DNA from: a virus
Virus record (IMG/VR): IMGVR_UViG_3300022921_001386
Reading direction: 5' to 3' (one strand)
Length of the DNA stretch: 64,000 nt
Shown: in pieces, positions 14,988-63,847 of the stretch
Numbering within the stretch: the stretch's first letter is position 1
Layout: every line of letters starts with the position of its first letter
Notes under the pieces: generated by a model
The model's input: the letters and a program-made list of their open reading frames with translations, nothing else
Told to the model about the DNA's origin: nothing
Database searches by the model: none
Translations under genes and position numbers: made by a program

Positions 14988-16017
14988 TTCTCATAAACCT
15001 TTTATATTGCGGTAGTTCTAGTTCTCCGCTGTATAACTCTTCACCTAGTGGTACTTGTTTTGTAAAACCTTCAAGAGTTTCGTGACAGTTAACATGTTCT
15101 TTAATTTCAAAATAGTTGTTACTTTGCATTATTACCAAACTTCCAAATGGTATACTGTTGTACCAACTATCAAAATTTTCTATGTGTTCACAACTGGTAT
15201 TTATAATCGTATCCGGAACTGTCCACAATCGTTGAGTTGTCCCGTCAGCTTTGTATACATCGTATATATGTTCGTCAAATCTTATTTCATGTATGTCTTC
15301 GGTACTAGCTTTAAACTTCCAGTTTTCCTCTACCCACTTTTTATTAAATATTTCTGCTATTTTCCAAACATTTGGATCAACATCAAAACTGCGAATATTT
15401 TCTATTTTCATTCCGCTTTCAAACAACATAGTAGCAAGAGTAGCATACCATCCTGCACAAAGAAATACTTTACCTAGTTCTACATTACATTTTTTAAGTT
15501 CATTTATTAGCCAAAGTTTACTTTGTAACTGACCTCTACTAAAACAATCTTCGTCTATTTCGATATTATTGATTTGAAAGTTTTTAAATGCGTCAACAAA
15601 ATAAGTGCTATCTTTATCTTTTAAAAGTCTAAATATACTCCATATATTATCATCCATTACAGCTTTTTTTAAATCTTCGTTGCCAACTAATCTAAAAATA
15701 CTATGCATATTATCTTCAAGAACTGCTTTTCTTAAATCTTCGTTGCCCGGAAGTAATCTAAATAAACTATGTAAGTTTTGTTCTAGTACTACTTTACGCA
15801 AATCTTCAACTTCGCCAATAGCACGTATATTATCTATACATCGAAAAATGCTATGAATATTTTTTGTTAAAATAGCACTACATAAATCATCATTAGACGT
15901 AAACTCTAATATAGAACTCAAATCATAATCAATATATGCACGGCGTAAGTTTTTAAAATATTCATCTTGTGGATTTAATATTTCAAATCTATCTAATAGC
16001 TTATGTATTTCCATCAT
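14974..16017 (-). CDS. Putative class I SAM-dependent methyltransferase with N-terminal helical repeats
   Basis: SKLWL...VFLCAGWYATL (motif I-like), RSFDVDP, IINTSCEH, MQSNNY; N-terminal ~21-aa repeats. Confidence 0.65.
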   Translation of the reverse strand: MMEIHKLLDRFEILNPQDEYFKNLRRAYIDYDLSSILEFTSNDDLCSAILTKNIHSIFRCIDNIRAIGEVEDLRKVVLEQNLHSLFRLLPGNEDLRKAVLEDNMHSIFRLVGNEDLKKAVMDDNIWSIFRLLKDKDSTYFVDAFKNFQINNIEIDEDCFSRGQLQSKLWLINELKKCNVELGKVFLCAGWYATLATMLFESGMKIENIRSFDVDPNVWKIAEIFNKKWVEENWKFKASTEDIHEIRFDEHIYDVYKADGTTQRLWTVPDTIINTSCEHIENFDSWYNSIPFGSLVIMQSNNYFEIKEHVNCHETLEGFTKQVPLGEELYSGELELPQYKRFMRIGYK

Positions 16018-17644
16018 ACTTTTCCTTTAACCAATCAAAGTCATTGATGTTTTTTAGTGCTACAATATTGCCTTTATTACGAGTACCGTATGCGGTTCCT
16101 GCTTTGGCACCTTGCAAAGCATCTTCTCCGAACGGAGTATCAGGTAATACATGCATACACCAAGTCCTTAAACGTTCATTGGTTTCTTTACTTTTTTGCC
16201 TATCAATAACTTTACTCGATAACTTTGCACATTCTCTAAATGCACTTTTCCATGCATTAAAGGGATCTGTATTAAATGCTGTGATATTTGAAACCTTTGG
16301 CATAGCTACAAACTTATCACTAATACTTGTAGTCATGTCGGCTTTGCTAGTGTCCATGTTGAGTGTTTCGTGTCTTGGAAATAACTTAATACCTCCGTAT
16401 CCGTAGACTAACCCATTTACTGGATTCTTGCTACGCCATACATGCACATGATTATACTGCCAAGTAGGAACTTGCCAATCAAAATTAAAATCATCAACAA
16501 CTACAGCATCGCCATCGACTATATAAAACATAGGTGTATCACATGCTTTTGCTGCTTCAATATGTGCTTGATGTATTCCTTTAACTCCGTGTACTCTATG
16601 TATTACTCTGTCTGGAAATCTAGTTTTTAGATTTTCAAAATTTTCATTTGCATTTGGTTCTTGGTAACTAATAAACACTATATCATACAGTTTAGGCATA
16701 CTAGCTAAAGTATCATATTCTTTTTTGTTAGCAATAAATCTAAATAACCATTCACGTCTGCTAATTTTAGCATGTTTACTACAAAGTATAACTCCGTCGT
16801 GGAATTTGCCGTTTAAAAAAACATGATTTATTTTTCTATCAAAAGTATTGTCATGTGTAAAGTAGTGATCAAAGTTAAAATCATTAGATACAATAACATT
16901 AGACGGAACAACATAAAACATTTCTGTACTACTTGTTTTTAATGCCAACAAATAATCATCATATGTATCAATATTAAAAACGTCATATTGCGCAGGACCA
17001 CTAGCTACTGTTTTATGTTCAATTTTATTAACTATAAACCTGTGTTCAATTTCTTTTTTTGATAATTCAGCTTTTTTACTACAAAGGAATAGGCCATTAT
17101 ATAACTCTTTGTCATTAACTTGATGCACAAATGCATGATTTTGCGAAAGTAGCTGTACTTCGCGATGTGGAATATAATAGTTGTTAACAAACTCTGTATT
17201 AATGCTGATATTAGCGGTACTCATCCAAAACATATCTGTCTTGCTAGTTTCTAATGCAGACAGATAATCTGCATATGTATCAATATTAAAAACGTCATAC
17301 GCACAAGGACTACTTGCTTGTATATCAACTTCTTTTTTATTAACAAAAAATCGATGTTGCAACTCTTTAACTGACACCTCCGAAGATTTTGGTATTAGAC
17401 AAACTCCATCATAATATTCATTGTTTTTAAATACATGTACATACTCTGTGCTCCATGCATCTGGCTCGTAATCAAAGTTAAAGTCATTGTTTATTATAAT
17501 GTCAGGCCAGACTACCCAAAACATCTTAGTAATACAAATACGCTTTGCATCATCTAATGTGCTTGCATGTTTTAAAAAAGGAAATCGTTGTTTTGCAGAC
17601 TTCCACTGTTTGTTTTTTTCGCCAATAAAGATTATATCATACAT
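16001..17644 (-). CDS. Glycosyltransferase-like (GT-A fold) protein with internal domain repeats
   Basis: C-terminal YDIVFISYQEPNA...VHGVKG..AH..AA...YIVDGD (DxD)...YGYGGIKLFP...AWKSAFRE; paralog of 23678..24607. Start moved to ATG 17644, just downstream of a promoter. Confidence 0.7.
   Translation of the reverse strand: MYDIIFIGEKNKQWKSAKQRFPFLKHASTLDDAKRICITKMFWVVWPDIIINNDFNFDYEPDAWSTEYVHVFKNNEYYDGVCLIPKSSEVSVKELQHRFFVNKKEVDIQASSPCAYDVFNIDTYADYLSALETSKTDMFWMSTANISINTEFVNNYYIPHREVQLLSQNHAFVHQVNDKELYNGLFLCSKKAELSKKEIEHRFIVNKIEHKTVASGPAQYDVFNIDTYDDYLLALKTSSTEMFYVVPSNVIVSNDFNFDHYFTHDNTFDRKINHVFLNGKFHDGVILCSKHAKISRREWLFRFIANKKEYDTLASMPKLYDIVFISYQEPNANENFENLKTRFPDRVIHRVHGVKGIHQAHIEAAKACDTPMFYIVDGDAVVVDDFNFDWQVPTWQYNHVHVWRSKNPVNGLVYGYGGIKLFPRHETLNMDTSKADMTTSISDKFVAMPKVSNITAFNTDPFNAWKSAFRECAKLSSKVIDRQKSKETNERLRTWCMHVLPDTPFGEDALQGAKAGTAYGTRNKGNIVALKNINDFDWLKEKYDGNT
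16960..17299. repeat. 28-bp perfect direct repeat (16960-16987 and 17272-17299)
   Basis: catatgtatcaatattaaaaacgtcata occurs twice, 312 bp (104 codons) apart; encodes YDVFNIDTY in both copies. Confidence 0.9.
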
Positions 17645-17650
17645 ACAGTA

Positions 17651-17679
17651 GTTATAACATATTTTAATCAACAAGTCAA
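17651..17679 (-). promoter_or_regulatory. sigma70-type promoter heading the radical SAM/QueC operon
   Basis: TTGACT-17 bp-TATAAC with extended -10 TG; the ATG lies 6 nt after the -10 hexamer. Confidence 0.7.
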
Positions 17680-17692
17680 GAACAGAATGTGA

Positions 17693-17698
17693 TAAATA
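17693..17698 (+). promoter_or_regulatory. Putative T4-type late promoter core (TAAATA)
   Basis: gaTAAATAct upstream of GAGG and ATG 17722; the same motif precedes many structural genes. Confidence 0.6.
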
Positions 17699-17721
17699 CT
17701 AGAGAAGAGGAACCAACAAAC

Positions 17722-19137
17722 ATGACCGATTTTATACCAGGTGAAGCATACCGACTAGATATTATTACAGCAGACGAGACAGTGATTGTCGACAGCTGGC
17801 AGGGACAGATTAAAGCAAGTGTTGTTGATATCAATGGTATTATACTAGTCGATGTTGATACTGGAAACTTATACGGTACGTTAGTTGGTACAATTGAAGA
17901 CGCTAACGGCAATACTGTTTTATCCTCAACAGGTGATCTAACTGGTAGTGTTACTGGTAGTGTATACGACAACGACGGTGCTTTAGCATTTGATGGCGAA
18001 AACGGAACGGTTATTGCTAATGTTGTTGGCAATGTTGTAGATAGCGAAGGCGATATTATTGTTAATACCGGAGCAAAATCTATTACTGCTAATAGTATTA
18101 CAGGTGATTTTTATGGCAACCTAACAGGTAGCATCACAGCAGATAGTGTAATATACGGTACATTTAATGGCGATTTTAACGGTACAAGTTATGGAGACTT
18201 TTTTGGAGATACTACAGGTACACACACAGGCGATGTAGTAGGTGATGTAGTAGGTGATGTAACAGGCAATGTCACAGGCAATCTTACTGGCGAACTACTT
18301 GCTATCCAGCCAGGCGATGATATTGCTACACGTCTTACCGGACATAACAACACTGGCGGATACAATCAGTGGGAGTTTTACGGTGGACTTGCACACCCAG
18401 TGTATCCTGCAGAAGATGCTGTTGCACGTGGTCCTATAGTAAATATTGGTGCAACTAGAGCCGACACAGAAGTAAGAGCCAACTTAAATCATTATGATGG
18501 CACGCCAGTGATGAGATTGTCGTTGGAGAGTTTGCCGACTTACAAAGCTGATTTTATGGGAAGACTTATTGGAGCAGTTGCATACGACACACAAGGCGAT
18601 GATGGTATTACTAATATTATATCTGGAGAAAGCAATGGTACACGTATTAGTGGCATAAATGATAAGATAAATATTGGTGATGAAAATGACGAAGTAAATA
18701 TCATTGCCGATAGTCTAACTATACAAACGGATTCAATAGACTCGCTTTCGCATAGAGGATCAAATAATAACAAAACATCTCTACTAAACAATGACGAACT
18801 TTTAAGTATTGAAAGTTGGGGTTACAACGGAACTGAATACAAACGAGGCGGAATGTTTGGATTTAAAGTTGACGGCACACCTGATGCAAACGGAAATACC
18901 ATACCAACAGGGTTTGGTGTTCAGCTGAGTACATCTACTAGTACACACGTTACAAATATAGCAAACAGACTAGAGTTTAATAACAAAGGTGTATTAGAAG
19001 TTCCAATATTTAAAGCAAGAGGCACCACATTTGCCGACAGAGATAGTATGATAGCAGAAGCAGGCATGATATTATTTAATACTAGCAACAACAAGTTTCA
19101 AGGATACAACGGAACTTCTTGGGTTGACTTAGGTTAA
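17722..19137 (+). CDS. Putative virion fibre/structural protein with TG(D/N)(V/L) repeats
   Basis: Tetrapeptide repeats (TGDVVGDVVGDVTGNVTGNLTG); C-terminal AGMILFNTSNNKFQGYNGTSW module typical of T4-like fibre proteins; late promoter. Start moved to ATG 17722. Confidence 0.65.
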   Translation: MTDFIPGEAYRLDIITADETVIVDSWQGQIKASVVDINGIILVDVDTGNLYGTLVGTIEDANGNTVLSSTGDLTGSVTGSVYDNDGALAFDGENGTVIANVVGNVVDSEGDIIVNTGAKSITANSITGDFYGNLTGSITADSVIYGTFNGDFNGTSYGDFFGDTTGTHTGDVVGDVVGDVTGNVTGNLTGELLAIQPGDDIATRLTGHNNTGGYNQWEFYGGLAHPVYPAEDAVARGPIVNIGATRADTEVRANLNHYDGTPVMRLSLESLPTYKADFMGRLIGAVAYDTQGDDGITNIISGESNGTRISGINDKINIGDENDEVNIIADSLTIQTDSIDSLSHRGSNNNKTSLLNNDELLSIESWGYNGTEYKRGGMFGFKVDGTPDANGNTIPTGFGVQLSTSTSTHVTNIANRLEFNNKGVLEVPIFKARGTTFADRDSMIAEAGMILFNTSNNKFQGYNGTSWVDLG

Positions 19138-19152
19138 AATATATGTTATAGT
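19124..19152 (+). promoter_or_regulatory. sigma70-type promoter for the adenylation/halogenase/GNAT operon
   Basis: TTGACT-17 bp-TATAGT with extended -10 TG; AGGAG RBS before GTG 19177. Confidence 0.7.
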
Positions 19153-19176
19153 TAAAAAAAGATCATAGGAGCACAA

Positions 19177-20235
19177 GTGCGGATTTTTATTAACGGCGAA
19201 CAAATATCTCAACAATGGATCAGCGACTATACGTTAAGTAACACTGTAGATTGCTACAGTGACAAGCCAGACTGGGAACAAAATGTATTAAAACTGTTGC
19301 ACAACTGGCATTCACAAAGTGGGTATAGCTATGGACATAGAGGTGATAAGTTTGTTAATCTCAGTACCAGTGGCACCACTGGATTTCCACAACAAATTGG
19401 ACACACTAAAGAAACTATAGAACAAGTTGTAAATGCAAATATCAAAACATTAGGGTTAGATAAAAATAGTAAAATATTAAGTTACTATTCACCTCGTGGT
19501 ATTGCGTTTAGTGTGCTAAGTGTGTATCTTGCATTGAAACTAGATTGCGAACTATACATTGAAACATTCAAAGGCATTGACTATATAAATCGTGTACACG
19601 AAATACGTCCAACACACACATTGTTATTGCCTAATGTTTGGAAAACATTATACACACACGACAAATGGAAAACACTAGATTATAGTAGTTTACAAACTGT
19701 TATTACAGGTAGTGACTTTACACCAATAGGAATGTTAGACGAACTACGTGAACACAATCCAGGTAAAGTATACAATGTATATGGCAGTACTGAAGTGCCT
19801 CCTATAGTATTGTACAGTGAAGAAGAAAACACATACACAATAGACAGTATTGTTCCTGGAGCAGAAGTAGATATTGTAAATGGACAGATTGCTTGTAAAT
19901 GGAGCAGTCAGCCCGATATATGGATTAGTGGAGATTGTGTAGACGGCGATAGAAATTGTTTTACATTACACGGGCGTAAGCACAACATGTTCAAACAAAA
20001 TACTGTTAGAGTATATCCTGAACAAATCGAAAAAGCAGCAGTTGCAGCAGGAGCAGAACTTGCACTGTGTCAACAAGTAAGCAATCAATGTGTGCTACAC
20101 TATACAGGTAATATAAAAGATATGAAGTTATTCAACGACACTTACAAATATATTCCAAGATTTAGACTACGGGCAGTAGATCATATTGCAGTAGACAACA
20201 ATCTTAAAAAGATTATAAGGACACAAACATTTTGA
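19177..20235 (+). CDS. Short adenylate-forming (AMP-binding, acyl-CoA synthetase-like) enzyme
   Basis: STSGTTGFPQ (A3 P-loop), NVYGSTE (A5), SGD, GRK...FK...RVYPEQIE (A8), terminal LKKI (A10-like). Confidence 0.85.
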   Translation: MRIFINGEQISQQWISDYTLSNTVDCYSDKPDWEQNVLKLLHNWHSQSGYSYGHRGDKFVNLSTSGTTGFPQQIGHTKETIEQVVNANIKTLGLDKNSKILSYYSPRGIAFSVLSVYLALKLDCELYIETFKGIDYINRVHEIRPTHTLLLPNVWKTLYTHDKWKTLDYSSLQTVITGSDFTPIGMLDELREHNPGKVYNVYGSTEVPPIVLYSEEENTYTIDSIVPGAEVDIVNGQIACKWSSQPDIWISGDCVDGDRNCFTLHGRKHNMFKQNTVRVYPEQIEKAAVAAGAELALCQQVSNQCVLHYTGNIKDMKLFNDTYKYIPRFRLRAVDHIAVDNNLKKIIRTQTF

Positions 20236-21728
20236 GAATAATAGTTTTAGGTGCCGGAACAGCTGGTGCGATTGCTGCAGGTATCATAAAAAAACGCAGA
20301 CCTGATATTGAAGTTTTACAAATTCACAGTGAACAAGTTGGTATTATCGGAGTCGGCGAAAGTGTTACTCCTTATTTAAATCATGCATTCCACGAACTTG
20401 GTATGGTTGAAAAAGATTGGATGACTGCAACTGGTAGTATGTACAAACTAGGAAACAAGTTTGAAGGATGGACAGACGAAGATCATTACTTTGCATTTAC
20501 ATACAACAAGCCTATTGATAAACTTATTAATAATAAACCTATAGACTGGAATGATATCAAAAGTATAAACGAAACTGATATTAGACTTACTGACGTATGG
20601 TGTGATTTGTACAATCAAGGAATGGTAAACAACTTTAGTGCAAGTTTTAATGATTTGCACAATTCATTAGTCGACAATACATTTGATTTTAAGTTACTTG
20701 ATCGCACTTGTCTCAACTACAGTTATCATATTAATGCAGAAAAACTTGCACCTTACATAAGAAAAAATATTAATAATAAACTTGGTGTAATAGAAATAGA
20801 AGGTAAAGTTGTCAAAGTTAATACCAACGACAACGGTGTACACAGTGTTGAGATGGAAAACGGAGAAGTATATACGTCCGATTACTGGTTTGATTGCAGT
20901 GGATTTAATAGATTACTAATCAACGAACTTGACGATAGCTTTCATACATACGACTATTGTAAAGCAAATAGTGCAGTAGTAATGCCAATAGAATATACTT
21001 CGCAAGACCAACTAACAAATCATACTAGAACTATTTGGTTAGAACAAGGATGGCAGTTTAAAATAGGATTAACCGAACGTATCGGAACTGGTATTATTTA
21101 CAGTGATGAATATTTTAGCGATGAAGAAATAAAACAACTATTGTTAGAAAAAGAAAATCATAAAAACATCCGGCCACCAAAAATACTAAAATGGACGCCT
21201 GGTAGAATGGTCAATCCTGCTATAGATAATGTGTTTAGTATAGGAATGGCAGCAGGATTCTGCGAGCCAATGGAAGCAAATGCGTTATACATTACAATGG
21301 CAACTATTAAAAGAGCATTACACAGTATTAACCAAGACGAAAATAGAAATACATTTAACAAAGTTATCAATCATACACTAGACGATACTGCATTTTTTAT
21401 TGCCGCACATTATACACTTTGTGAAAAAGGTAATAACGCATACTGGAATGATATGCGTGAAATAGGTATAAAACAAAATCACAAGCAACTATTACTGGAA
21501 AAGTACAACGATGTAAAAAATAATATGGAAAGTGCTGTAAATCATTATACAATGTATCCAGATTACATGTGGATGGAACTAGCATCGGCATGGTGTAAAG
21601 ACATTAGTACTTGGAGTAAAAATACAGATCCTAGACTACAGCAGCAAGTTTTAGAATATTTTAGAAAATCAAAAAGTATCACAACCAATCAATATCCAGA
21701 AGAAATGAGGAAGTTTCATAATGTATAG
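20232..21728 (+). CDS. Flavin-dependent halogenase (tryptophan halogenase/PrnA family)
   Basis: GAGTAG; IGVGES; MYKLGNKFEGW (catalytic Lys position); FDCSGF; GWQFKIGL; FCEPMEA. Confidence 0.88.
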   Translation: MRIIVLGAGTAGAIAAGIIKKRRPDIEVLQIHSEQVGIIGVGESVTPYLNHAFHELGMVEKDWMTATGSMYKLGNKFEGWTDEDHYFAFTYNKPIDKLINNKPIDWNDIKSINETDIRLTDVWCDLYNQGMVNNFSASFNDLHNSLVDNTFDFKLLDRTCLNYSYHINAEKLAPYIRKNINNKLGVIEIEGKVVKVNTNDNGVHSVEMENGEVYTSDYWFDCSGFNRLLINELDDSFHTYDYCKANSAVVMPIEYTSQDQLTNHTRTIWLEQGWQFKIGLTERIGTGIIYSDEYFSDEEIKQLLLEKENHKNIRPPKILKWTPGRMVNPAIDNVFSIGMAAGFCEPMEANALYITMATIKRALHSINQDENRNTFNKVINHTLDDTAFFIAAHYTLCEKGNNAYWNDMREIGIKQNHKQLLLEKYNDVKNNMESAVNHYTMYPDYMWMELASAWCKDISTWSKNTDPRLQQQVLEYFRKSKSITTNQYPEEMRKFHNV

Positions 21729-22308
21729 ATTTGAAATATACAACGGCACACAAGATTTAACACAATGGTATAAGGATGCCGAAGAAAAAGGTTACTATAA
21801 TAATAGCAACAAAGAGATGCTTGTTGACTGGGTTGAAAAACATGAAGACGCAACACTGTTTTTGTTGTACTACAATGAACATATTGTAGGCAATAGTGTT
21901 GTTCATAGTTTAAAAGAGCTGGGAATACTTGGTAAAAATGCATATCGCATTGGCGCAAGAACTTGTTTGATTAGAGACAGAATTGACGGTGGCAGAGTTT
22001 ATGCTCCAGCTAATGGCCCAGTAAATCATCATACTGTGCAAATGTTACTTCCTATATGTATCGAACATGTAGGAAGAGACAAGCCTGTGTATATTAGTAC
22101 ACACGAAGGCGGAGTGGGAAGTCAAGACCGTGTACACAAAGTGTGGACATATTTTACAAACAAACTAGGCATCACCGGTGACAGCATTGATTTAGAATAC
22201 AAAGGTGCATTCCAAACTTTTAGACGGATTGATGTTGATAGGATGTATGATTTACTAAAAGAAGCAAGATGGCCCGAGGCAGAGCAAGCTATTCCACTGT
22301 TTAGTTAA
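21721..22308 (+). CDS. Hypothetical protein, possible GNAT-fold acyltransferase
   Basis: LFLLYYNEHIVG...AYRIGARTCL resembles the GNAT beta2-beta4 pattern; weak motif evidence only. Confidence 0.45.
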   Translation: MYRFEIYNGTQDLTQWYKDAEEKGYYNNSNKEMLVDWVEKHEDATLFLLYYNEHIVGNSVVHSLKELGILGKNAYRIGARTCLIRDRIDGGRVYAPANGPVNHHTVQMLLPICIEHVGRDKPVYISTHEGGVGSQDRVHKVWTYFTNKLGITGDSIDLEYKGAFQTFRRIDVDRMYDLLKEARWPEAEQAIPLFS

Positions 22309-23678
22309 ACGTATTTCTTACAAAGTTCAAAAAAGTCTGACATCTCTGGAAAAACTTGTTCATGATCTACATTACGTCTACGACCTTGCTCTTCAAAGAA
22401 GTTGTGAAAATCTCTACGTCCTTGAATAACTTTATCTAATGGATATTCAGTAGACTCCATGTAATCAACAACACGTCTAAACTTTTCATACTCAATAGTA
22501 CTAAACGCATCTTTGCGATTATCATCTGTATTCTCTTTGATAAACTGCAAATGATCATGCATATAACTCATGTAGTTTTTAGGCAGGATATTAATATCGT
22601 ACTGCAACGGTTCTTTCAAATGCGGTGTGTCAAATCCTAATCGTTGCCATCTGTGCGTTTCTACATCATTATATTTTTTGCGCCATTCAAGAATCTTTTC
22701 AAGCAATGTACGGAATGTAGTGACACTGAAGATGTTAAATGTAATCATAATAACCATCGGTGCTTCGCAGTTGCGCATAAAATAATCCAAGTTGCGTTCA
22801 AACACTTCAATGTCTAATCCATCACGAATATACTCAGCACGTTTTCCCCAAGTATCAATACTTGTAAACATTTTAAAACGTCTAATCTTGTTGTTTGTCA
22901 ACAAGTCATTCACACGGTTTGTAAACTTTTCTAACTGTTTTGGTTTGCCGCCTAAGTTGCTGTTGCAGTTTAGTTCTAAATCTGGTTTAGGGTCTGCATC
23001 CAGCATATCAAATAGTTTATATGTGCTCTGCTGTATTGTAGGCTCGCCGCCTGTAATGCGTAAAATATGTAAGTCTTTACTTAACTCTGGCCACCACTTC
23101 CAAAATGCATCTAAATACGGATTGTTTTGTTCTTCAAATATTTCAAACCAGTCAATATCACATCTGTGATTCTTTACGTTTGTGTAAGGACCATGTTGCT
23201 TTATCTCTTGGTGATATCTACTGCTGGCTTTTGGATGACAATATCCACATCTAAAGTTACACTCATTACCGAAGCTGACCTCTAAGTATTCAGGATTAAC
23301 ATCAAACTCTGCGCCACCTTCTTTAACAGCCTTTAAGCGTTCTTTAAAGAAGATAGTTTGGTTGCGTTGTTTTCTATCGCTAACATAATCTTTGCCCATT
23401 GCTTCAATCTTCCAGCAATAGTTACATCCGCTAGGTTGCTCGCCTTTCATCATAGCAGCACGTTCTGCTTTTTTCTGTACTGTATTATGAATAGCACTCG
23501 GATTAGTTAGAAGTGGCGCTGCATCAATCTTGTGCGGTGCAGGATGATAACAACTGTGTGTTTCGCCTGTTTGAAAATATATATTAGCATGGTACCATTT
23601 AGCAAAACAAAACGTAGGAGAAATCTCTTGCGTTATTTTGTCAATACGTTTGATTTCTTCGCTTTCACTGCGTTCCAT
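22305..23678 (-). CDS. Radical SAM protein with N-terminal Twitch-like domain
   Basis: FCFAKW...HSCYHP...GCNYCWKIE; EVSFGNECNFRCGYC; ITGGEP; NSNLG; SIDT. Confidence 0.9.
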   Translation of the reverse strand: MERSESEEIKRIDKITQEISPTFCFAKWYHANIYFQTGETHSCYHPAPHKIDAAPLLTNPSAIHNTVQKKAERAAMMKGEQPSGCNYCWKIEAMGKDYVSDRKQRNQTIFFKERLKAVKEGGAEFDVNPEYLEVSFGNECNFRCGYCHPKASSRYHQEIKQHGPYTNVKNHRCDIDWFEIFEEQNNPYLDAFWKWWPELSKDLHILRITGGEPTIQQSTYKLFDMLDADPKPDLELNCNSNLGGKPKQLEKFTNRVNDLLTNNKIRRFKMFTSIDTWGKRAEYIRDGLDIEVFERNLDYFMRNCEAPMVIMITFNIFSVTTFRTLLEKILEWRKKYNDVETHRWQRLGFDTPHLKEPLQYDINILPKNYMSYMHDHLQFIKENTDDNRKDAFSTIEYEKFRRVVDYMESTEYPLDKVIQGRRDFHNFFEEQGRRRNVDHEQVFPEMSDFFELCKKYV

Positions 23679-24607
23679 TATTGTTCTCTATCTAAAAATT
23701 GTTTGCTGTTATCTCTTATTGGATTTTGGTACACTGTTTTGAAGAACTTACTTCCGCCTGCATCAAAGGGAGTCATTGCGATTGGAATATCAAGAGCGTT
23801 GATTAATTTGTCACCGTAATCTTCAGTTGCTTCTAACAAGTTTTCTTCGTCAACAGTAACTTCTAAATTTTTCCACATATTGTTTAGGTATTCAAAGTCG
23901 CGCACATTGATAAAATCCCAGTCTGTGAGCATTGTCATATACAACCCTTGACGAGCGCCATAGATACCCCACATGCCATTTTCTACATCAGCGCCAACCA
24001 TAAGCCAGATATACAAACGATGCAAGTTTTTCCAATGATTTTTATGGAAGTCTTCTACACTAACACGCATACCTTGGTCCAGTGCCATTTTAACACCTTC
24101 TCTAAATCCAGCACGCCATGCTTGATGCGGTGTAGCATTATTCATGATAGTACTATATGTACCATTCATCTGAATATATTGTGTATCCCAACAAAAATCT
24201 ACTTGTGCATGTGGGTTATTATCAGGCGCATTTTCGTGTGTACGCATGTTCAATACATGCTGTTTAGGCCAGCACTTGATCCCACCGTTACCGTATGTAA
24301 GATTATTAATAGTATTACGGGCTGTCCAACTAATCACTTTGTTTGTTAAGTCTGTGTTTTCATCAAAGTCCATTGCCTGTGTTAAAAACTTTTCATCGAT
24401 GATGTTGTCGCCGTCAATGGTGATAAATCGATCTGTAGTTGATTTATTAGCTGCTGCCTTATGGGCACTATCACTGCCTTTTACACCATGTACACGTTCT
24501 GCCCACGGAACTTTCTTGCATAAATCTGCATAGTTTTGTTCTGCATTTGGCTCATCGTAGCTTAGATATATAATGTCACAATCTATAACTCTAAAAGTAT
24601 TAGCCAT
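23678..24607 (-). CDS. Glycosyltransferase-like protein (GT-A fold)
   Basis: DIIYLSYDEPNA...VHGVKG...AH.AAA...ITIDGDN (DxD)...YGNGGIKCWP...AWRAGFRE. Confidence 0.7.
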   Translation of the reverse strand: MANTFRVIDCDIIYLSYDEPNAEQNYADLCKKVPWAERVHGVKGSDSAHKAAANKSTTDRFITIDGDNIIDEKFLTQAMDFDENTDLTNKVISWTARNTINNLTYGNGGIKCWPKQHVLNMRTHENAPDNNPHAQVDFCWDTQYIQMNGTYSTIMNNATPHQAWRAGFREGVKMALDQGMRVSVEDFHKNHWKNLHRLYIWLMVGADVENGMWGIYGARQGLYMTMLTDWDFINVRDFEYLNNMWKNLEVTVDEENLLEATEDYGDKLINALDIPIAMTPFDAGGSKFFKTVYQNPIRDNSKQFLDREQ

Positions 24608-60348: not shown

Positions 60349-61362
60349 TTGTTTAACAAAGCAGCGGTGTTTACTGACATACATTTAGGTATGAAAGGCA
60401 ACAGTCGAGTCCATAATCAGGACTGCGAGGACTATATTGATTGGTATATCGAACAAGCCAAGGCTCACGGATGTGAAACTGGATTGTTTTGTGGTGACTG
60501 GCATCATAATCGCAACAGTCTTAACCTTACAACTATGGATACGACTATTAGGCTACTAGAAAAACTAGGTGAAGCCTTTGAAAACTTCTATATGTTTGCT
60601 GGTAATCACGACTTGTACTACAAAGACAAACGTGATATTAGTTCGACTGAGTTTGCAAGACACATACCAGGCATTACCGTAATAGATCAAATGATGGTCA
60701 AAGACGATGTTGCACTGGTGCCTTGGTTGGTTGGCGATGAATGGAAGAAGATTGAAAAGTTAAAAGCAAAATACTTGTTTGGTCACTTCGAACTCCCATC
60801 GTTCTACATGAACGCTATGGTACAAATGCCGGACCACGGAGAACTTAAAGCTGAACACTTTAAGAACCAAGAGTATGTGTTCAGTGGTCACTTCCACAAA
60901 CGTCAGAAGCAAGGCAAAGTACATTACATTGGTAATGCTTTTCCACATAACTACGCTGATGCGTGGGACGATGCACGTGGTATGATGATACTGGACAAAG
61001 AGAATGATGCAGAACCACTGTACATCGATTGGGAAGAGTGTCCTAAGTATCGTACAGTCAGGCTATCCAAGTTGATTGACGAGAAGGATACACTTATCAA
61101 GCCAAACATGTACCTTAGAGTTACACTAGACATTGATATTAGCTACGAAGAGGCAACCTTTATCAAAGAAACCTTTATGGAAGCATATAGTTGCAGAGAA
61201 ATAACACTTATTCCAAACAAGAATATAGAAGATATTACTACTGATCTTGATATCGAACAGTTTGAGAGCGTAGATCAGATCGTAAGCAATGAGATACAAG
61301 CAATCGACAGCGAACAGTTCAACAAAAAACTATTATTAGACATATATAACGAGCTAACATGA
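60349..61362 (+). CDS. Recombination endonuclease subunit (T4 gp47/Mre11/SbcD-like)
   Basis: Metallophosphoesterase motifs DIHLG, GDWHH, GNHD, GHFE, SGHFH. Confidence 0.95.
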   Translation: MFNKAAVFTDIHLGMKGNSRVHNQDCEDYIDWYIEQAKAHGCETGLFCGDWHHNRNSLNLTTMDTTIRLLEKLGEAFENFYMFAGNHDLYYKDKRDISSTEFARHIPGITVIDQMMVKDDVALVPWLVGDEWKKIEKLKAKYLFGHFELPSFYMNAMVQMPDHGELKAEHFKNQEYVFSGHFHKRQKQGKVHYIGNAFPHNYADAWDDARGMMILDKENDAEPLYIDWEECPKYRTVRLSKLIDEKDTLIKPNMYLRVTLDIDISYEEATFIKETFMEAYSCREITLIPNKNIEDITTDLDIEQFESVDQIVSNEIQAIDSEQFNKKLLLDIYNELT

Positions 61363-63137
61363 TTAAAATACAAGACTTAACCGTAAAGAACTTCATGAGT
61401 GTGGGTAATGTTACTCAGGCTGTAGACTTCAACAAAGAACAACTAACACTTGTACTAGGAGAGAACTTAGATCAAGGCGGAGACGACACTGGATCACGTA
61501 ATGGTACAGGTAAGACTACTATCATCAACGCATTAAGCTATGCATTGTATGGTACAGCTCTTACAAACATCAAACGCAACAACTTGATCAACAAAACCAA
61601 CAGCAAAGGCATGTTAGTTACTCTTAACTTCGGTATAGGTACTAACCAATACCGCATCGAGCGTGGTAGATCTCCAAATGTTCTCAAGTTTTACGTGAAC
61701 AATCACGAACAAAAGGATGATTTACACGACGAATCGCAAGGCGATAGTAGAAAAACACAAGAAGATATCAATAGTTTGCTTGACATGAGCCATGATATGT
61801 TTAAACACGTAGTTGCACTCAATACTTACACAGAACCTTTCCTAAGTATGCGAGCAAACGATCAACGTGCTATTATTGAGCAGTTATTGGGCATTACTAT
61901 TCTTACCGAAAAAGCAGATAGCTTAAAAGAAAAAGTAAAACAGACAAAAGATGCTATCACAGAAGAAACATTAAAGATCAATGCCATCGAAGCTGCAAAT
62001 AAAAAGATTGAGCAGAGTATTGAAACACTTGCAGGTAGACAACGTGCTTGGCAAAGCAAAAGTAGACAAGATCAAGATAGATTAGCAGCAGGGATTGAAG
62101 AATTAGAGAAGTTGGACATTGAATATGAGCTTGATGCACATGAAAAACTGGCTAGCTGGACTGAACACAACAACAAACTAACCTCTTTAAGGAAAGAGTT
62201 AAGCACACTCGAGCCTGCACTACGGCGTGCTACTACTAGTGTTGAAAAGGTTAATAAAGACATCTTAGAATTAAAGGATGCAACATGTTATACTTGCGGT
62301 CAAGAGCTACATGCAGACAAAAAAGCTGAGATTGAATCGCTAAAAGTACAAGAACTAGATGATGCAGTTGCATATCAAAGCGAAGTTTCAAGTAAACTAA
62401 ACACAACTATGCAGCTATTAGAAGAGATTGGCGATATCAACGGCAAGCCTACTACGTTTTACGAAAGTGCTAAAGAAGCATACGAACATAGAAACAACGT
62501 AGATAACTTGCGCAGTACATTAATAAGTAAACAGCAAGAAGAAGATCCATATCAAACACAGATTGACGATTTAACAGAGACAGCACTACAAAATATCGAT
62601 TGGGAACCAGTTAACCAGCTTACGTTACTCAAAGAACACCAAGAGTTTTTGCTTAAACTGTTGACAAACAAAGATTCGTTCATTCGTAAAAAGATTATAG
62701 ATCAAAACTTAGCGTACTTGAACAATAGGCTCACATACTATCTTGATAAACTAGGCTTGCCGCATCAAGTTCAGTTCCAAAACGATTTGTCAACTGAGAT
62801 TACTCAGCTAGGACAAGACTTGGACTTTGATAACTTGAGTCGAGGCGAGCGCAACAGGCTGATACTAGGCATGAGTTGGGCATTTAGAGATGTTTGGGAG
62901 TCATTGTATCAAGGTATTAACTTGTTGTTTATTGACGAACTTATTGACAGTGGCATGGACACTGCTGGCGTTGAGTCAGCACTTGCTGTACTAAAGAAAA
63001 TGGGTAGAGAACGTAGTAAAAATGTTTTCTTAATCTCACACAAAGACGAACTAATAGGCAGAGTGAATCATGTCATGAAAGTGATTAAGGAAAACGGATT
63101 TACTAGTTACGAGAATGATATTGATATTGTAGAATAA
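61359..63137 (+). CDS. Recombination ATPase subunit (T4 gp46/Rad50/SbcC-like)
   Basis: Walker A NGTGKTT, coiled coils with CYTCG zinc hook, signature LSRGE, Walker B LLFIDE, ISH. Confidence 0.95.
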   Translation: MIKIQDLTVKNFMSVGNVTQAVDFNKEQLTLVLGENLDQGGDDTGSRNGTGKTTIINALSYALYGTALTNIKRNNLINKTNSKGMLVTLNFGIGTNQYRIERGRSPNVLKFYVNNHEQKDDLHDESQGDSRKTQEDINSLLDMSHDMFKHVVALNTYTEPFLSMRANDQRAIIEQLLGITILTEKADSLKEKVKQTKDAITEETLKINAIEAANKKIEQSIETLAGRQRAWQSKSRQDQDRLAAGIEELEKLDIEYELDAHEKLASWTEHNNKLTSLRKELSTLEPALRRATTSVEKVNKDILELKDATCYTCGQELHADKKAEIESLKVQELDDAVAYQSEVSSKLNTTMQLLEEIGDINGKPTTFYESAKEAYEHRNNVDNLRSTLISKQQEEDPYQTQIDDLTETALQNIDWEPVNQLTLLKEHQEFLLKLLTNKDSFIRKKIIDQNLAYLNNRLTYYLDKLGLPHQVQFQNDLSTEITQLGQDLDFDNLSRGERNRLILGMSWAFRDVWESLYQGINLLFIDELIDSGMDTAGVESALAVLKKMGRERSKNVFLISHKDELIGRVNHVMKVIKENGFTSYENDIDIVE

Positions 63138-63346
63138 TGAACGATACTCACGATCAAATAATGCAAGCTGTGTTAAGTTACTTGAAAGCCAGCGAAACTT
63201 TTGAAAGAAGACCGAGTGAAAGTACAAAACGTACTGCTCGGAGAGAATTAAGGCTGCTAATGGGATTAGCAAAACAAAGGCAAGACGAAATAATAGACAA
63301 ATATGAAAAACACATAACCGAACTACGTAATAATAGAGACACATAG
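63137..63346 (+). CDS. Small hypothetical protein (69 aa)
   Basis: TAATG overlap with gp46; helical and basic. Confidence 0.7.
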   Translation: MNDTHDQIMQAVLSYLKASETFERRPSESTKRTARRELRLLMGLAKQRQDEIIDKYEKHITELRNNRDT

Positions 63347-63397
63347 GCATTTATTCAAAAAAGGCACGTGAGGTAAAGGCAAACAAGTAACTACTGT

Positions 63398-63847
63398 ATG
63401 AGTTGGACATATCGAGGTAAAGAAATAACTGAAATACCAGATGAGTATGAAGGATTTGTTTATCTTATCACCAACCTTACTAACAATCAAAAATACATAG
63501 GCAAAAAACTAGCAAAGTTCAAAACTACTAAGCCACCTTTAAAAGGCAAGAAAAATAAAAGACGCGGCTACAAAGAAAGCGACTGGAGAACATACTACGG
63601 TAGTTCAGACAGACTAAACGCAGACGTAGCAGCACTAGGCAAAGATAAGTTTACAAGAGAAATATTATACCTATGTAAAGGTAGAGGCGAAATGTCCTAC
63701 ATAGAGGCACGAGAACAGTTTGATCGCAGAGTACTTGAAACAGATGAATACTATAATGGTATTATTAATGTTAGAGTCGGCGGATCAGACAAACTCAAAC
63801 AGGCATTGCTAGAACATTCCATCAAGGCAAAACAATCCAACACATAA
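63398..63847 (+). CDS. GIY-YIG family nuclease-like protein
   Basis: GFVYLITNLTNNQKYIGKK...YYGSS...FTREIL...E...YYN. Confidence 0.8.
   Translation: MSWTYRGKEITEIPDEYEGFVYLITNLTNNQKYIGKKLAKFKTTKPPLKGKKNKRRGYKESDWRTYYGSSDRLNADVAALGKDKFTREILYLCKGRGEMSYIEAREQFDRRVLETDEYYNGIINVRVGGSDKLKQALLEHSIKAKQSNT

Follow-up and report, generated by a model that had tools for sequence, protein, structure and literature searches.

A recurrent viral gene module combining a compact adenylate-forming enzyme, a halogenase-family protein and a predicted GNAT-fold protein

What does a virus make with an adenylate-forming enzyme, a flavin-dependent halogenase-family protein and a GNAT-like transferase encoded side by side? 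Genes for these three proteins occupy positions 19177–22308 of the window analyzed here, a 64,000-nt stretch of the virus record IMGVR_UViG_3300022921_001386, which stems from an uncultured giant marine phage. To our knowledge, flavin-dependent halogenases are common in marine phages, and we know of none for which the natural substrate has been established. A reading of the window made from its letters alone (the sequence-only reading) had proposed that the trio activates a carboxylic acid, halogenates it and transfers the acyl group to an amine, which would provide a context-based substrate hypothesis for viral halogenases. Our analysis indicated that the module is real, recurrent and uncharacterised, and that it represents a new variant of the ligase plus GNAT biochemical logic in an unusual viral setting. 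With a probability of roughly one half, the three genes constitute a carrier-free, amide-forming tailoring module within a host-recognition/tailoring island.

Recurrence of the three gene families

The cassette encodes a compact adenylate-forming (ANL) enzyme of 352 amino acids (aa) (hereafter the ligase; 19177–20235, plus strand), a flavin-dependent halogenase-family protein of 498 aa with a TTG start (20232–21728, plus strand; PF04820, 3.5e-71), and a GNAT-fold protein of 195 aa assigned through its predicted structure (open reading frame 3 [ORF3], 21721–22308, plus strand). The overlap of the three genes described by the sequence-only reading was borne out, with the ligase stop codon TGA (20233–20235) overlapping the halogenase TTG start (20232) by 4 nt, and the halogenase stop codon TAG (21726–21728) overlapping the ORF3 ATG (21721) by 8 nt. 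The co-oriented unit contains four genes rather than three, with a fibre-like ORF (17689–19137, plus strand) coming first.

To describe the occurrence of the module, related loci were gathered via each of the three proteins and via exact-protein look-ups, typed with family hidden Markov models, and counted as IMG/VR contigs. The order fibre-ligase-GNAT without a halogenase was observed in 31 IMG/VR contigs, while fibre-ligase-halogenase-GNAT was observed in five contigs and one cut contig, and also in the assemblies L072, L074, L081 and L082. Ligase and GNAT make up the constant pair in the related viral contigs, and in about eight contigs the halogenase gene is found inside this pair. Three loci (L080, L092, and L127) show the order GNAT-ligase-halogenase, and L079/L106 contain GNAT-halogenase without a ligase. 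In seven contigs, a halogenase with approximately 35% identity is followed within 2 kb, after one or two genes, by the GNAT gene and a radical S-adenosylmethionine (SAM) gene with an HMPTM-type zinc ribbon. The GNAT gene stands directly behind an N-Twitch radical SAM gene, with neither ligase nor halogenase, at five loci (L026–L030), a TauD-family oxygenase-GNAT pair occurs in L023, and the ligase occurs alone among uninformative neighbours in L063. The GNAT is the constant hub of these architectures, to which the ligase, the halogenase, a TauD-type oxygenase and a radical SAM protein are joined in varying combinations. Because the halogenase is missing from about four-fifths of the ligase-GNAT cassettes (~80%) and present in only about one-fifth, its contribution is one of optional tailoring and does not belong to the core of the pathway. 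Seen from the side of the halogenases, 16 of 80 viral halogenase loci carry an ORF3-type GNAT within 4.5 kb.

A second, reduced triad was found in the related record G005 (L163:3658–6094), where a GNAT-like gene (171 aa), a halogenase-family gene (395 aa) and a ligase gene (255 aa) are translationally coupled in the order GNAT-halogenase-ligase. This triad is very divergent and is located elsewhere in the tailoring island than the main cassette. Its halogenase carries the motif W-M-F-V-I-P, and its ligase lacks the C-terminal domain and hence the A10 lysine. It is situated between a P450 gene and a B12-binding radical SAM gene, and it is followed by an Asp/Asn-hydroxylase-like gene and a methyltransferase gene. 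The recurrence of the three families in different orders and lineages, together with this divergent triad, argues for functional coupling and agrees with the expectation that the trio would be conserved.

Properties of the three proteins

No Pfam, PHROG or NCBIfam match was obtained for ORF3, and its family profile retrieved nothing from the PDB sequences even at an E value of 10; since sequence and profile searches gave nothing, ORF3 was identified by fold search only. In its AlphaFold2 (AF2) model, with a predicted local distance difference test score (pLDDT) of 87.5, the order of secondary structures fits β1-α1-α2-β2-β3-β4-α3-β5-α4-β6-β7. Structural alignment by VIA-align gave a Z score of 12.9 to 1yre (PA3270) over 155 residues, with a root mean square deviation (RMSD) of 3.2, and 162 chains reached Z ≥ 8; every match listed is a GNAT-superfamily protein. 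Foldseek returned 161 matches at E ≤ 1e-3. The GNAT-like nature proposed for this protein was thus confirmed at the level of the predicted structure. The ORF3 family comprises 30 clusters down to 42% identity and is narrow: clustering at 50% identity leaves 79 clusters in a set of 1.84 billion representatives, and its members come from viral and metagenome contigs. Its invariant residues include H62, R76, R80, C82, Q107, C113, H139, E159, and Y160.

Comparison with Pfam families revealed sub-threshold matches to FeeM (PF21926) in 16 of 29 ORF3 members, restricted to the N-terminal third and with a best E value of 0.0037. ORF3 of the window itself scored 13.1 bits against FeeM (E 0.081), below the 27-bit gathering cut-off. 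Autoind_synth (PF00765) was listed for 0 of the 29 members at E ≤ 1, and LasI, BjaI and MesI are among the structural neighbours. A Pfam scan of ten distant members of the GNAT family gave one sub-threshold match to Acetyltransf_1. In every architecture the GNAT family adjoins a radical SAM gene. This partner is a convergent N-Twitch gene in the window and is co-directional and overlapping in L026–L030, and in a distant group (e.g., L146:7604–9231) the GNAT gene is followed by a radical SAM gene with the HMPTM-type zinc ribbon.

The ligase matches the Pfam AMP-binding profile (PF00501) at 4.6e-19, above the cut-off, with the match spanning profile positions 170–359 only. This agrees with the earlier remark that much of the usual N-terminal region is lacking, but almost all of the 103 homologues are 320–356 aa long, so the size of 352 aa is a family trait and not a truncation. 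In an alignment of 32 family members, the motifs TSGTTG (A3 P-loop, 64–69), YGSTE (A5, 202–206) and SGD (A7, 251–253) and the GR hinge (A8, 266–267) are invariant or nearly so, and the A10 catalytic lysine, K345, is kept throughout. The AF2 model (pLDDT 91.3) shows the two-domain ANL architecture, approximately 150 residues more compact and with 63 residues ahead of the P-loop. It aligns over 340–349 of the 352 residues to full-size ANLs with Z scores of 28–29 and an RMSD of approximately 3 Å (4gxq, 2v7b, 5bsm, 5n9w, and 7vhv). With the motifs intact and the model covering essentially all 352 residues, the ligase is predicted to be a compacted yet complete adenylate-forming enzyme. The full-size ANLs matched include MatB/BclM, benzoate-CoA ligase, 4-coumarate-CoA ligase, the A domain Thr1, DltA, and the amide-bond synthetase McbA. 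The nearest structures span CoA ligases, A domains of the stand-alone type and an amide-bond synthetase, with no more than 2 Z units between them. The structural matches do not discriminate the substrate class.

Among isolated phages, the ligase has only two weak matches, both to faecal phage fragments. It also weakly matches NF045666 (3.9e-6), and 4gs5 is found among its Foldseek matches. The bacterial mini-ANLs (4gs5, 350 aa, from Dyadobacter; NCBIfam DVU_1553) are likewise approximately 330–350 aa long and contain the core motifs. Their similarity to the phage ligase is low, however, and being uncharacterised, they give no substrate information.

The best PDB match of the halogenase-family protein is Th-Hal (5lv9, 5.6e-47), with a Trp 5-halogenase also at approximately 1e-46, and VirX1 (6qgm) matches at 9.4e-36. 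Its conserved FAD motif, GAGTAG, is located at residues 7–12, and K72 corresponds to the catalytic lysine (K79 of PrnA/RebH). Among 20 diverse members of the clade, K72 and E348 are invariant and E345 is at least 90% conserved, in the stretch E345-P-x-E348. Two other signatures differ. The WxWxIP motif is absent, with W-Q-F-K-I-G at 274–279 in the window protein and W-x-F-K-I-G clade-wide, and the tunnel motif FxxPxxSxG is replaced by F-C-E-P-M-E-A-N-A, in which the Ser and the Gly are both Ala across the clade. A role in preventing monooxygenation has been ascribed to WxWxIP, and Bmp5 is an example of the active halogenases that do without this motif (PMC8407142). Taken together, the window protein is a probable halogenase with atypical motifs. 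The WxFKIG/E-A-N-A clade is large and comes from viral and metagenome contigs; in the halogenase tree, the window halogenase stands apart from the main cassette clade, and the VirX1-type proteins occupy a separate long branch. In a further setting, L066:1970–7560, a same-clade halogenase (48% identical) directly follows genes for GTP cyclohydrolase I, QueC and a dCTP-deaminase-like protein, which is a 7-deazaguanine context; electron-rich 7-deazapurines could in principle serve as halogenase substrates.

The cyanophage halogenases (6qgm; PMC8407142) belong to the same Trp-halogenase family, are also viral, and share the FAD motif and the catalytic Lys/Glu; they are likewise encoded in a hypervariable structural region, that of T4-like marine phages. 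The review does not list a natural product of VirX1 (PMC8407142). In comparison to the window clade, these proteins, including that of the Syn10 locus behind VirX1, are only approximately 27% identical and keep the canonical W-V-W-N-I/V-P and E-S-x-G, and no ANL or GNAT of the studied families was found at the two cyanophage loci examined (L077 from Cyanophage Syn10 and L078 from Synechococcus phage Sf-CH11). For these reasons, the substrate hypothesis put forward for viral halogenases is applied to the WxFKIG clade and is not carried over to the VirX1 type. The Syn10 locus contains two halogenases in tandem; in Sf-CH11, the halogenase gene, flanked by genes for prolyl-hydroxylase-type 2-oxoglutarate oxygenases, comes after that for a giant structural protein and precedes the neck genes. 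The WxFKIG clade, in contrast, has a fixed rare partner, the narrow GNAT family, and a frequent second partner, the ligase of about 350 aa. Such fixed partners offer a small, clonable three-gene system for determining the donor, the acceptor and the halide preference, and the mini-ligase and the motif-variant halogenase could serve as compact biocatalysts.

Proposed mechanism and alternative explanations

In the mechanism we propose, the ligase would activate a carboxylic acid with ATP to form an acyl-adenylate, as its intact motifs and fold suggest. The acyl group would probably then be passed on as a CoA thioester using host CoA, or be handed directly to the next protein. The GNAT-fold protein, which resembles the FeeM/LuxI-like branch but appears to lack the canonical acetyl-CoA loop, would transfer the acyl group to an amine and form an amide, a step suggested by its fold and its gene linkage. 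In an optional third step, the halogenase, using FADH2 from a host reductase, would halogenate an electron-rich aromatic ring belonging to the acceptor, the donor or the product. This ring need not be that of the acid used by the ligase, because the halogenase keeps company with the GNAT in the absence of a ligase in L079/L106 and at the seven distant loci. Of the proposed chain of activation, halogenation and transfer, the adenylation motifs, the GNAT fold and the linkage hold, while halogenation becomes optional and the ligase acid need not be its substrate. The product most likely decorates something that the island builds, a glycan or a virion protein, and not DNA; the acyl target could be an island-made sugar amine, a virion protein or a free metabolite.

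The carrier-free reading draws on the closest of the records compared, G001, an 88.6-kb IMG/VR fragment that is 97% identical over the four-gene stretch. Neither a PP-binding domain (PF00550, E ≤ 0.1) nor a Flavin_Reduct domain was detected in G001, in line with the sequence-only reading, and no carrier protein was found among the called genes of the related loci. G001 is estimated to be 24% complete, which gives a genome of roughly 350 kb.

The same two-step logic, ATP activation followed by amine acylation, is found in known pairs of a ligase and a GNAT (the CoA-dependent, ligase-fed LuxI-type synthases BjaI and MesI; N-acyl amino acid synthases of the FeeM type; and the nucleotide-sugar N-acyltransferases FdhC and PseH). 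The phage system differs from these pairs in that its ligase is approximately 150 residues smaller than typical ANLs, its GNAT lacks both Pfam-level membership and the canonical CoA loop, and its genes are phage-encoded, placed in a virion/tailoring island and coupled to a halogenase. If the product is on the virion, acylation and halogenation would join the known ways in which phages diversify their host-recognition surfaces.

Several observations weigh against the amide-forming module. The Q/RxxGxG/A CoA loop is not recognisable in the ORF3 family, and the corresponding part from strand 4 to helix 3 (residues 84–103) is the most variable and indel-rich part of the alignment; without this loop, the donor could be an acyl-acyl carrier protein, an acyl-AMP or something else. 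The two non-canonical signature motifs of the halogenase mean that halogenation may not occur. The clade also includes halogenases that stand by themselves in unrelated contexts: next to QueC/FolE/DCD, next to DNA polymerase, and in the interval from gp46-like to SegE genes. Halogenase presence on the GNAT tree requires at least three to four gains or losses, and the adjacency to the fibre-like gene could largely be inherited synteny in one phage lineage.

One alternative is that the module makes a free metabolite, such as a diffusible N-acyl amine, a FeeM-type N-acyl amino acid or an aryl-acyl-homoserine-lactone-like molecule. The ligase would then supply an unusual acyl-CoA, as happens with CoA-dependent LuxI enzymes, and the product, halogenated in some phages, would manipulate the host or competitors. 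The weak FeeM signal in the 16 family members is consistent with such a product, and so are the occurrence of FeeM (2g0b) and of the CoA-dependent acyl-homoserine lactone synthases BjaI and MesI among the Foldseek and VIA-align matches, the best matches of the halogenase to enzymes acting on free tryptophan, and a small membrane ORF in the cassette of some relatives. However, the FeeM scores fall far below the Pfam cut-off, no member shows Autoind_synth at E ≤ 1, and the structural Z scores fail to separate FeeM/LuxI from ordinary GNATs. In addition, an exporter is absent, and the cassette lies among virion and tailoring genes rather than among early or host-takeover genes. We regard a free metabolite as possible, though unlikely.

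The position of the fibre-like gene, which heads the operon and is adjacent to the cassette at nearly all loci of the fibre-ligase type, suggests instead the modification of a protein in the manner of RiPPs, peptides that ribosomes synthesize and that are then modified post-translationally. In this case, the GNAT would acylate the co-transcribed fibre-like protein or some other virion protein, either at its N-terminus or on the side chain of a Lys, with the ligase-activated acid as the donor, and the halogenase would act on Trp or Tyr of the same protein. In the selidamides, for example, GNATs attach fatty acyl groups to Lys/Orn of ribosomal peptides (PMC8784127). The island and the second triad also carry enzyme types of peptide maturation, including SPASM/Twitch and B12 radical SAMs, a P450 and an Asp/Asn-hydroxylase-like protein, and the cyanophage halogenases also adjoin structural genes and prolyl-hydroxylase-type oxygenases. 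The GNATs of the selidamide (KspN/PhaN), goadvionin and lipolanthine pathways likewise place an acyl group other than acetyl onto an amine of a gene-encoded peptide and work together with hydroxylases and further maturases (PMC8784127). They match PF00583, which the phage family does not; the two are compared here at the fold level, and no precursor, leader or other recognition element was identified in the phage system. Moreover, the second triad and the distant halogenase-GNAT-radical SAM loci have no adjacent fibre gene, and the glycosyltransferase-like genes of the island fit a sugar target equally well. Protein modification is, in our view, a possibility of the same low standing as the free metabolite.

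A more specific form of the amide-forming mechanism is that the acyl-adenylate is relayed directly from the ligase to the GNAT, possibly via the invariant Cys82 or Cys113, and that a halogenated aromatic acyl group is placed on the virion fibre or its glycan. We consider this form doubtful; if true, a viral halogenase would for the first time have a natural substrate context, and this would also be the first case of a virion decoration that carries a halogen and tunes host recognition.

Just as doubtful is the explanation that the halogenase-family protein is a flavin monooxygenase (hydroxylase) or has some other activity. The clade-wide replacement of the canonical motifs by WxFKIG and F-x-E-P-M-E-A-N-A would be compatible with this, given the role ascribed to WxWxIP. 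On the other hand, K72, the lysine that defines flavin-dependent halogenases, does not vary and the glutamate hardly does, the protein as a whole strongly matches solved halogenases, and the example of Bmp5 indicates that WxWxIP is dispensable in some active enzymes.

The variable content of the slot between the fibre-like and radical SAM genes raises the question of whether its genes are coupled at all, or whether the slot is a recombination hot spot that gathers unrelated cargo. Besides the ligase and the halogenase, the slot may contain a TauD-like gene, the small membrane ORF, or ORFs of 218 aa (L023) and 221 aa (L079), which are mutually unrelated and have no Pfam match. Comparison of the window with L017/L035, from which the halogenase is absent, revealed identities of 91% for the ligase, 94% for the fibre-like gene and 99% for the radical SAM gene around a GNAT of only 55% identity. 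This points to a recombination event that replaced the halogenase and GNAT stretch between the window type and L017/L035. The idea that halogenase and GNAT always move together as a unit was ruled out by L081, whose window-type halogenase (86% identical) is combined, according to the GNAT tree, with a GNAT of another type. Further halogenases are located at other sites in these phage genomes. The absence of coupling is nevertheless very unlikely, since the three families are found together in three gene orders and in lineages far apart, and again elsewhere in the form of a paralogous triad, and since the GNAT family is so rare overall that chance adjacency is implausible.

One such other site lies at 60349–63847 of the window, which contains Mre11/Rad50-like (gp47/gp46-type) genes, a small ORF (63134–63328) and a gene for a SegE-type GIY-YIG homing endonuclease (63398–63847). 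In records G002 and G003, the small ORF and SegE are separated by a gene for a halogenase of 547 aa (40% identical), and the cassettes have no halogenase, while in the window and G001 the cassette halogenase is present and the site between the small ORF and SegE is empty. The cassette and gp46-SegE halogenases are perhaps complementary, and cassettes lacking a halogenase may be served in trans, although four records are too few to conclude. Record G007 (137 kb) contains the GNAT gene but neither a ligase nor a halogenase at any position.

Pat switches off acetyl-CoA synthetase by acylating its catalytic lysine. An analogous regulatory pair, in which the GNAT would inactivate the ligase by acylating its A10 lysine, is extremely improbable, because the GNAT occurs without any ligase in L023, L026–L030, L079 and the 137 kb of G007, even though K345 is invariant and the structural neighbours include 4u5y, a complex formed by the GNAT domain of Pat and the C-terminal domain of Acs.

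Genome setting of the cassette

The window has a GC content of approximately 35%, and nearly all transcription is on the minus strand. The sole plus-strand stretch within the tailoring island of approximately 27 kb is 17689–22308, consisting of the fibre-like ORF followed by the ligase, halogenase-family and GNAT-fold genes. From right to left, the gene order is baseplate hub/lysozyme and wedge, a 4545-aa protein, three fibre-like proteins, and the tailoring island; the baseplate hub and wedge, the 4545-aa protein and the fibre-like genes are located at 29–58 kb, while radical SAM, glycosyltransferase (GT)-like and other tailoring genes are located at 1–27 kb. By this gene content, baseplate and fibre genes followed by a radical SAM/GT island, the window matches the definition of the host recognition cluster (HRC) of pelagimyophages and cyanomyophages, a large variable island of the structural region that holds genes for fibres, glycosyltransferases and radical SAM proteins (Zaragoza-Solas et al. 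2020, PMC7029224). The HRC paper contains no mention of halogenases or acetyltransferases and describes no ligase-halogenase-GNAT unit (PMC7029224), and a full-text literature search combining flavin-dependent halogenase, phage and tail fiber found no paper. Neither the cassette island (4.8 kb, blastn) nor ORF3 (tblastn) had a match in 50,697 phage records.

The ORF at 17689–19137 encodes a Gly/Asn/Thr-rich protein of 482 aa. Its weak PHROG matches are limited to the C-terminal 40 aa, and its homologues in L072 and L073 show a PTL_trimer mark that is weak or faint. Because no match was found in the PDB or in the isolated phages (tblastn, 50,697 phage records), the fibre label is tentative. The single promoter proposed for the trio was not substantiated. 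A sigma-70-like sequence, TTGACT-17-TATAGT with TG (19124–19152, plus strand), lies just upstream of the ligase gene, at the 40-nt gap that precedes it, and is a candidate only, since the total of such matches is at chance level (23 found versus 22.3 expected). A terminator scan of the region was likewise at chance level, and the T4 late-promoter word TATAAATA occurs in two copies in the 64 kb, below chance, with neither near the cassette.

On its right side, the cassette meets the N-terminal-Twitch radical SAM gene (22305–23678, minus strand; NF033640, 5.6e-89), which is convergent with the GNAT gene and overlaps it by 4 nt at the 3′ ends. The cassette is flanked by paralogous genes: a 557-aa GT-like protein is encoded at 16001–17674 (minus strand), and its C-terminal half is approximately 33% identical to the 309-aa protein encoded at 23678–24607 (minus strand). 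The 557-aa protein contains three or four internal repeats of approximately 100 aa, as seen from tblastn self-matches in relatives.

In many relatives, including G001 and L017, the interval from the fibre-like gene to the ligase gene is approximately 236 nt longer; this extra stretch is absent from the window (19138–19176) and from L015. This insert encodes a hydrophobic ORF of approximately 71 aa (L003:3180–3456 and L017:4670–4946), probably a two-helix membrane protein. In L082 (1349–1564), a 71-aa gene at the same position is marked DUF6356 (PF19883). The ORF looks like a real gene, because the differences between L003 and L017 fall mostly at third codon positions.

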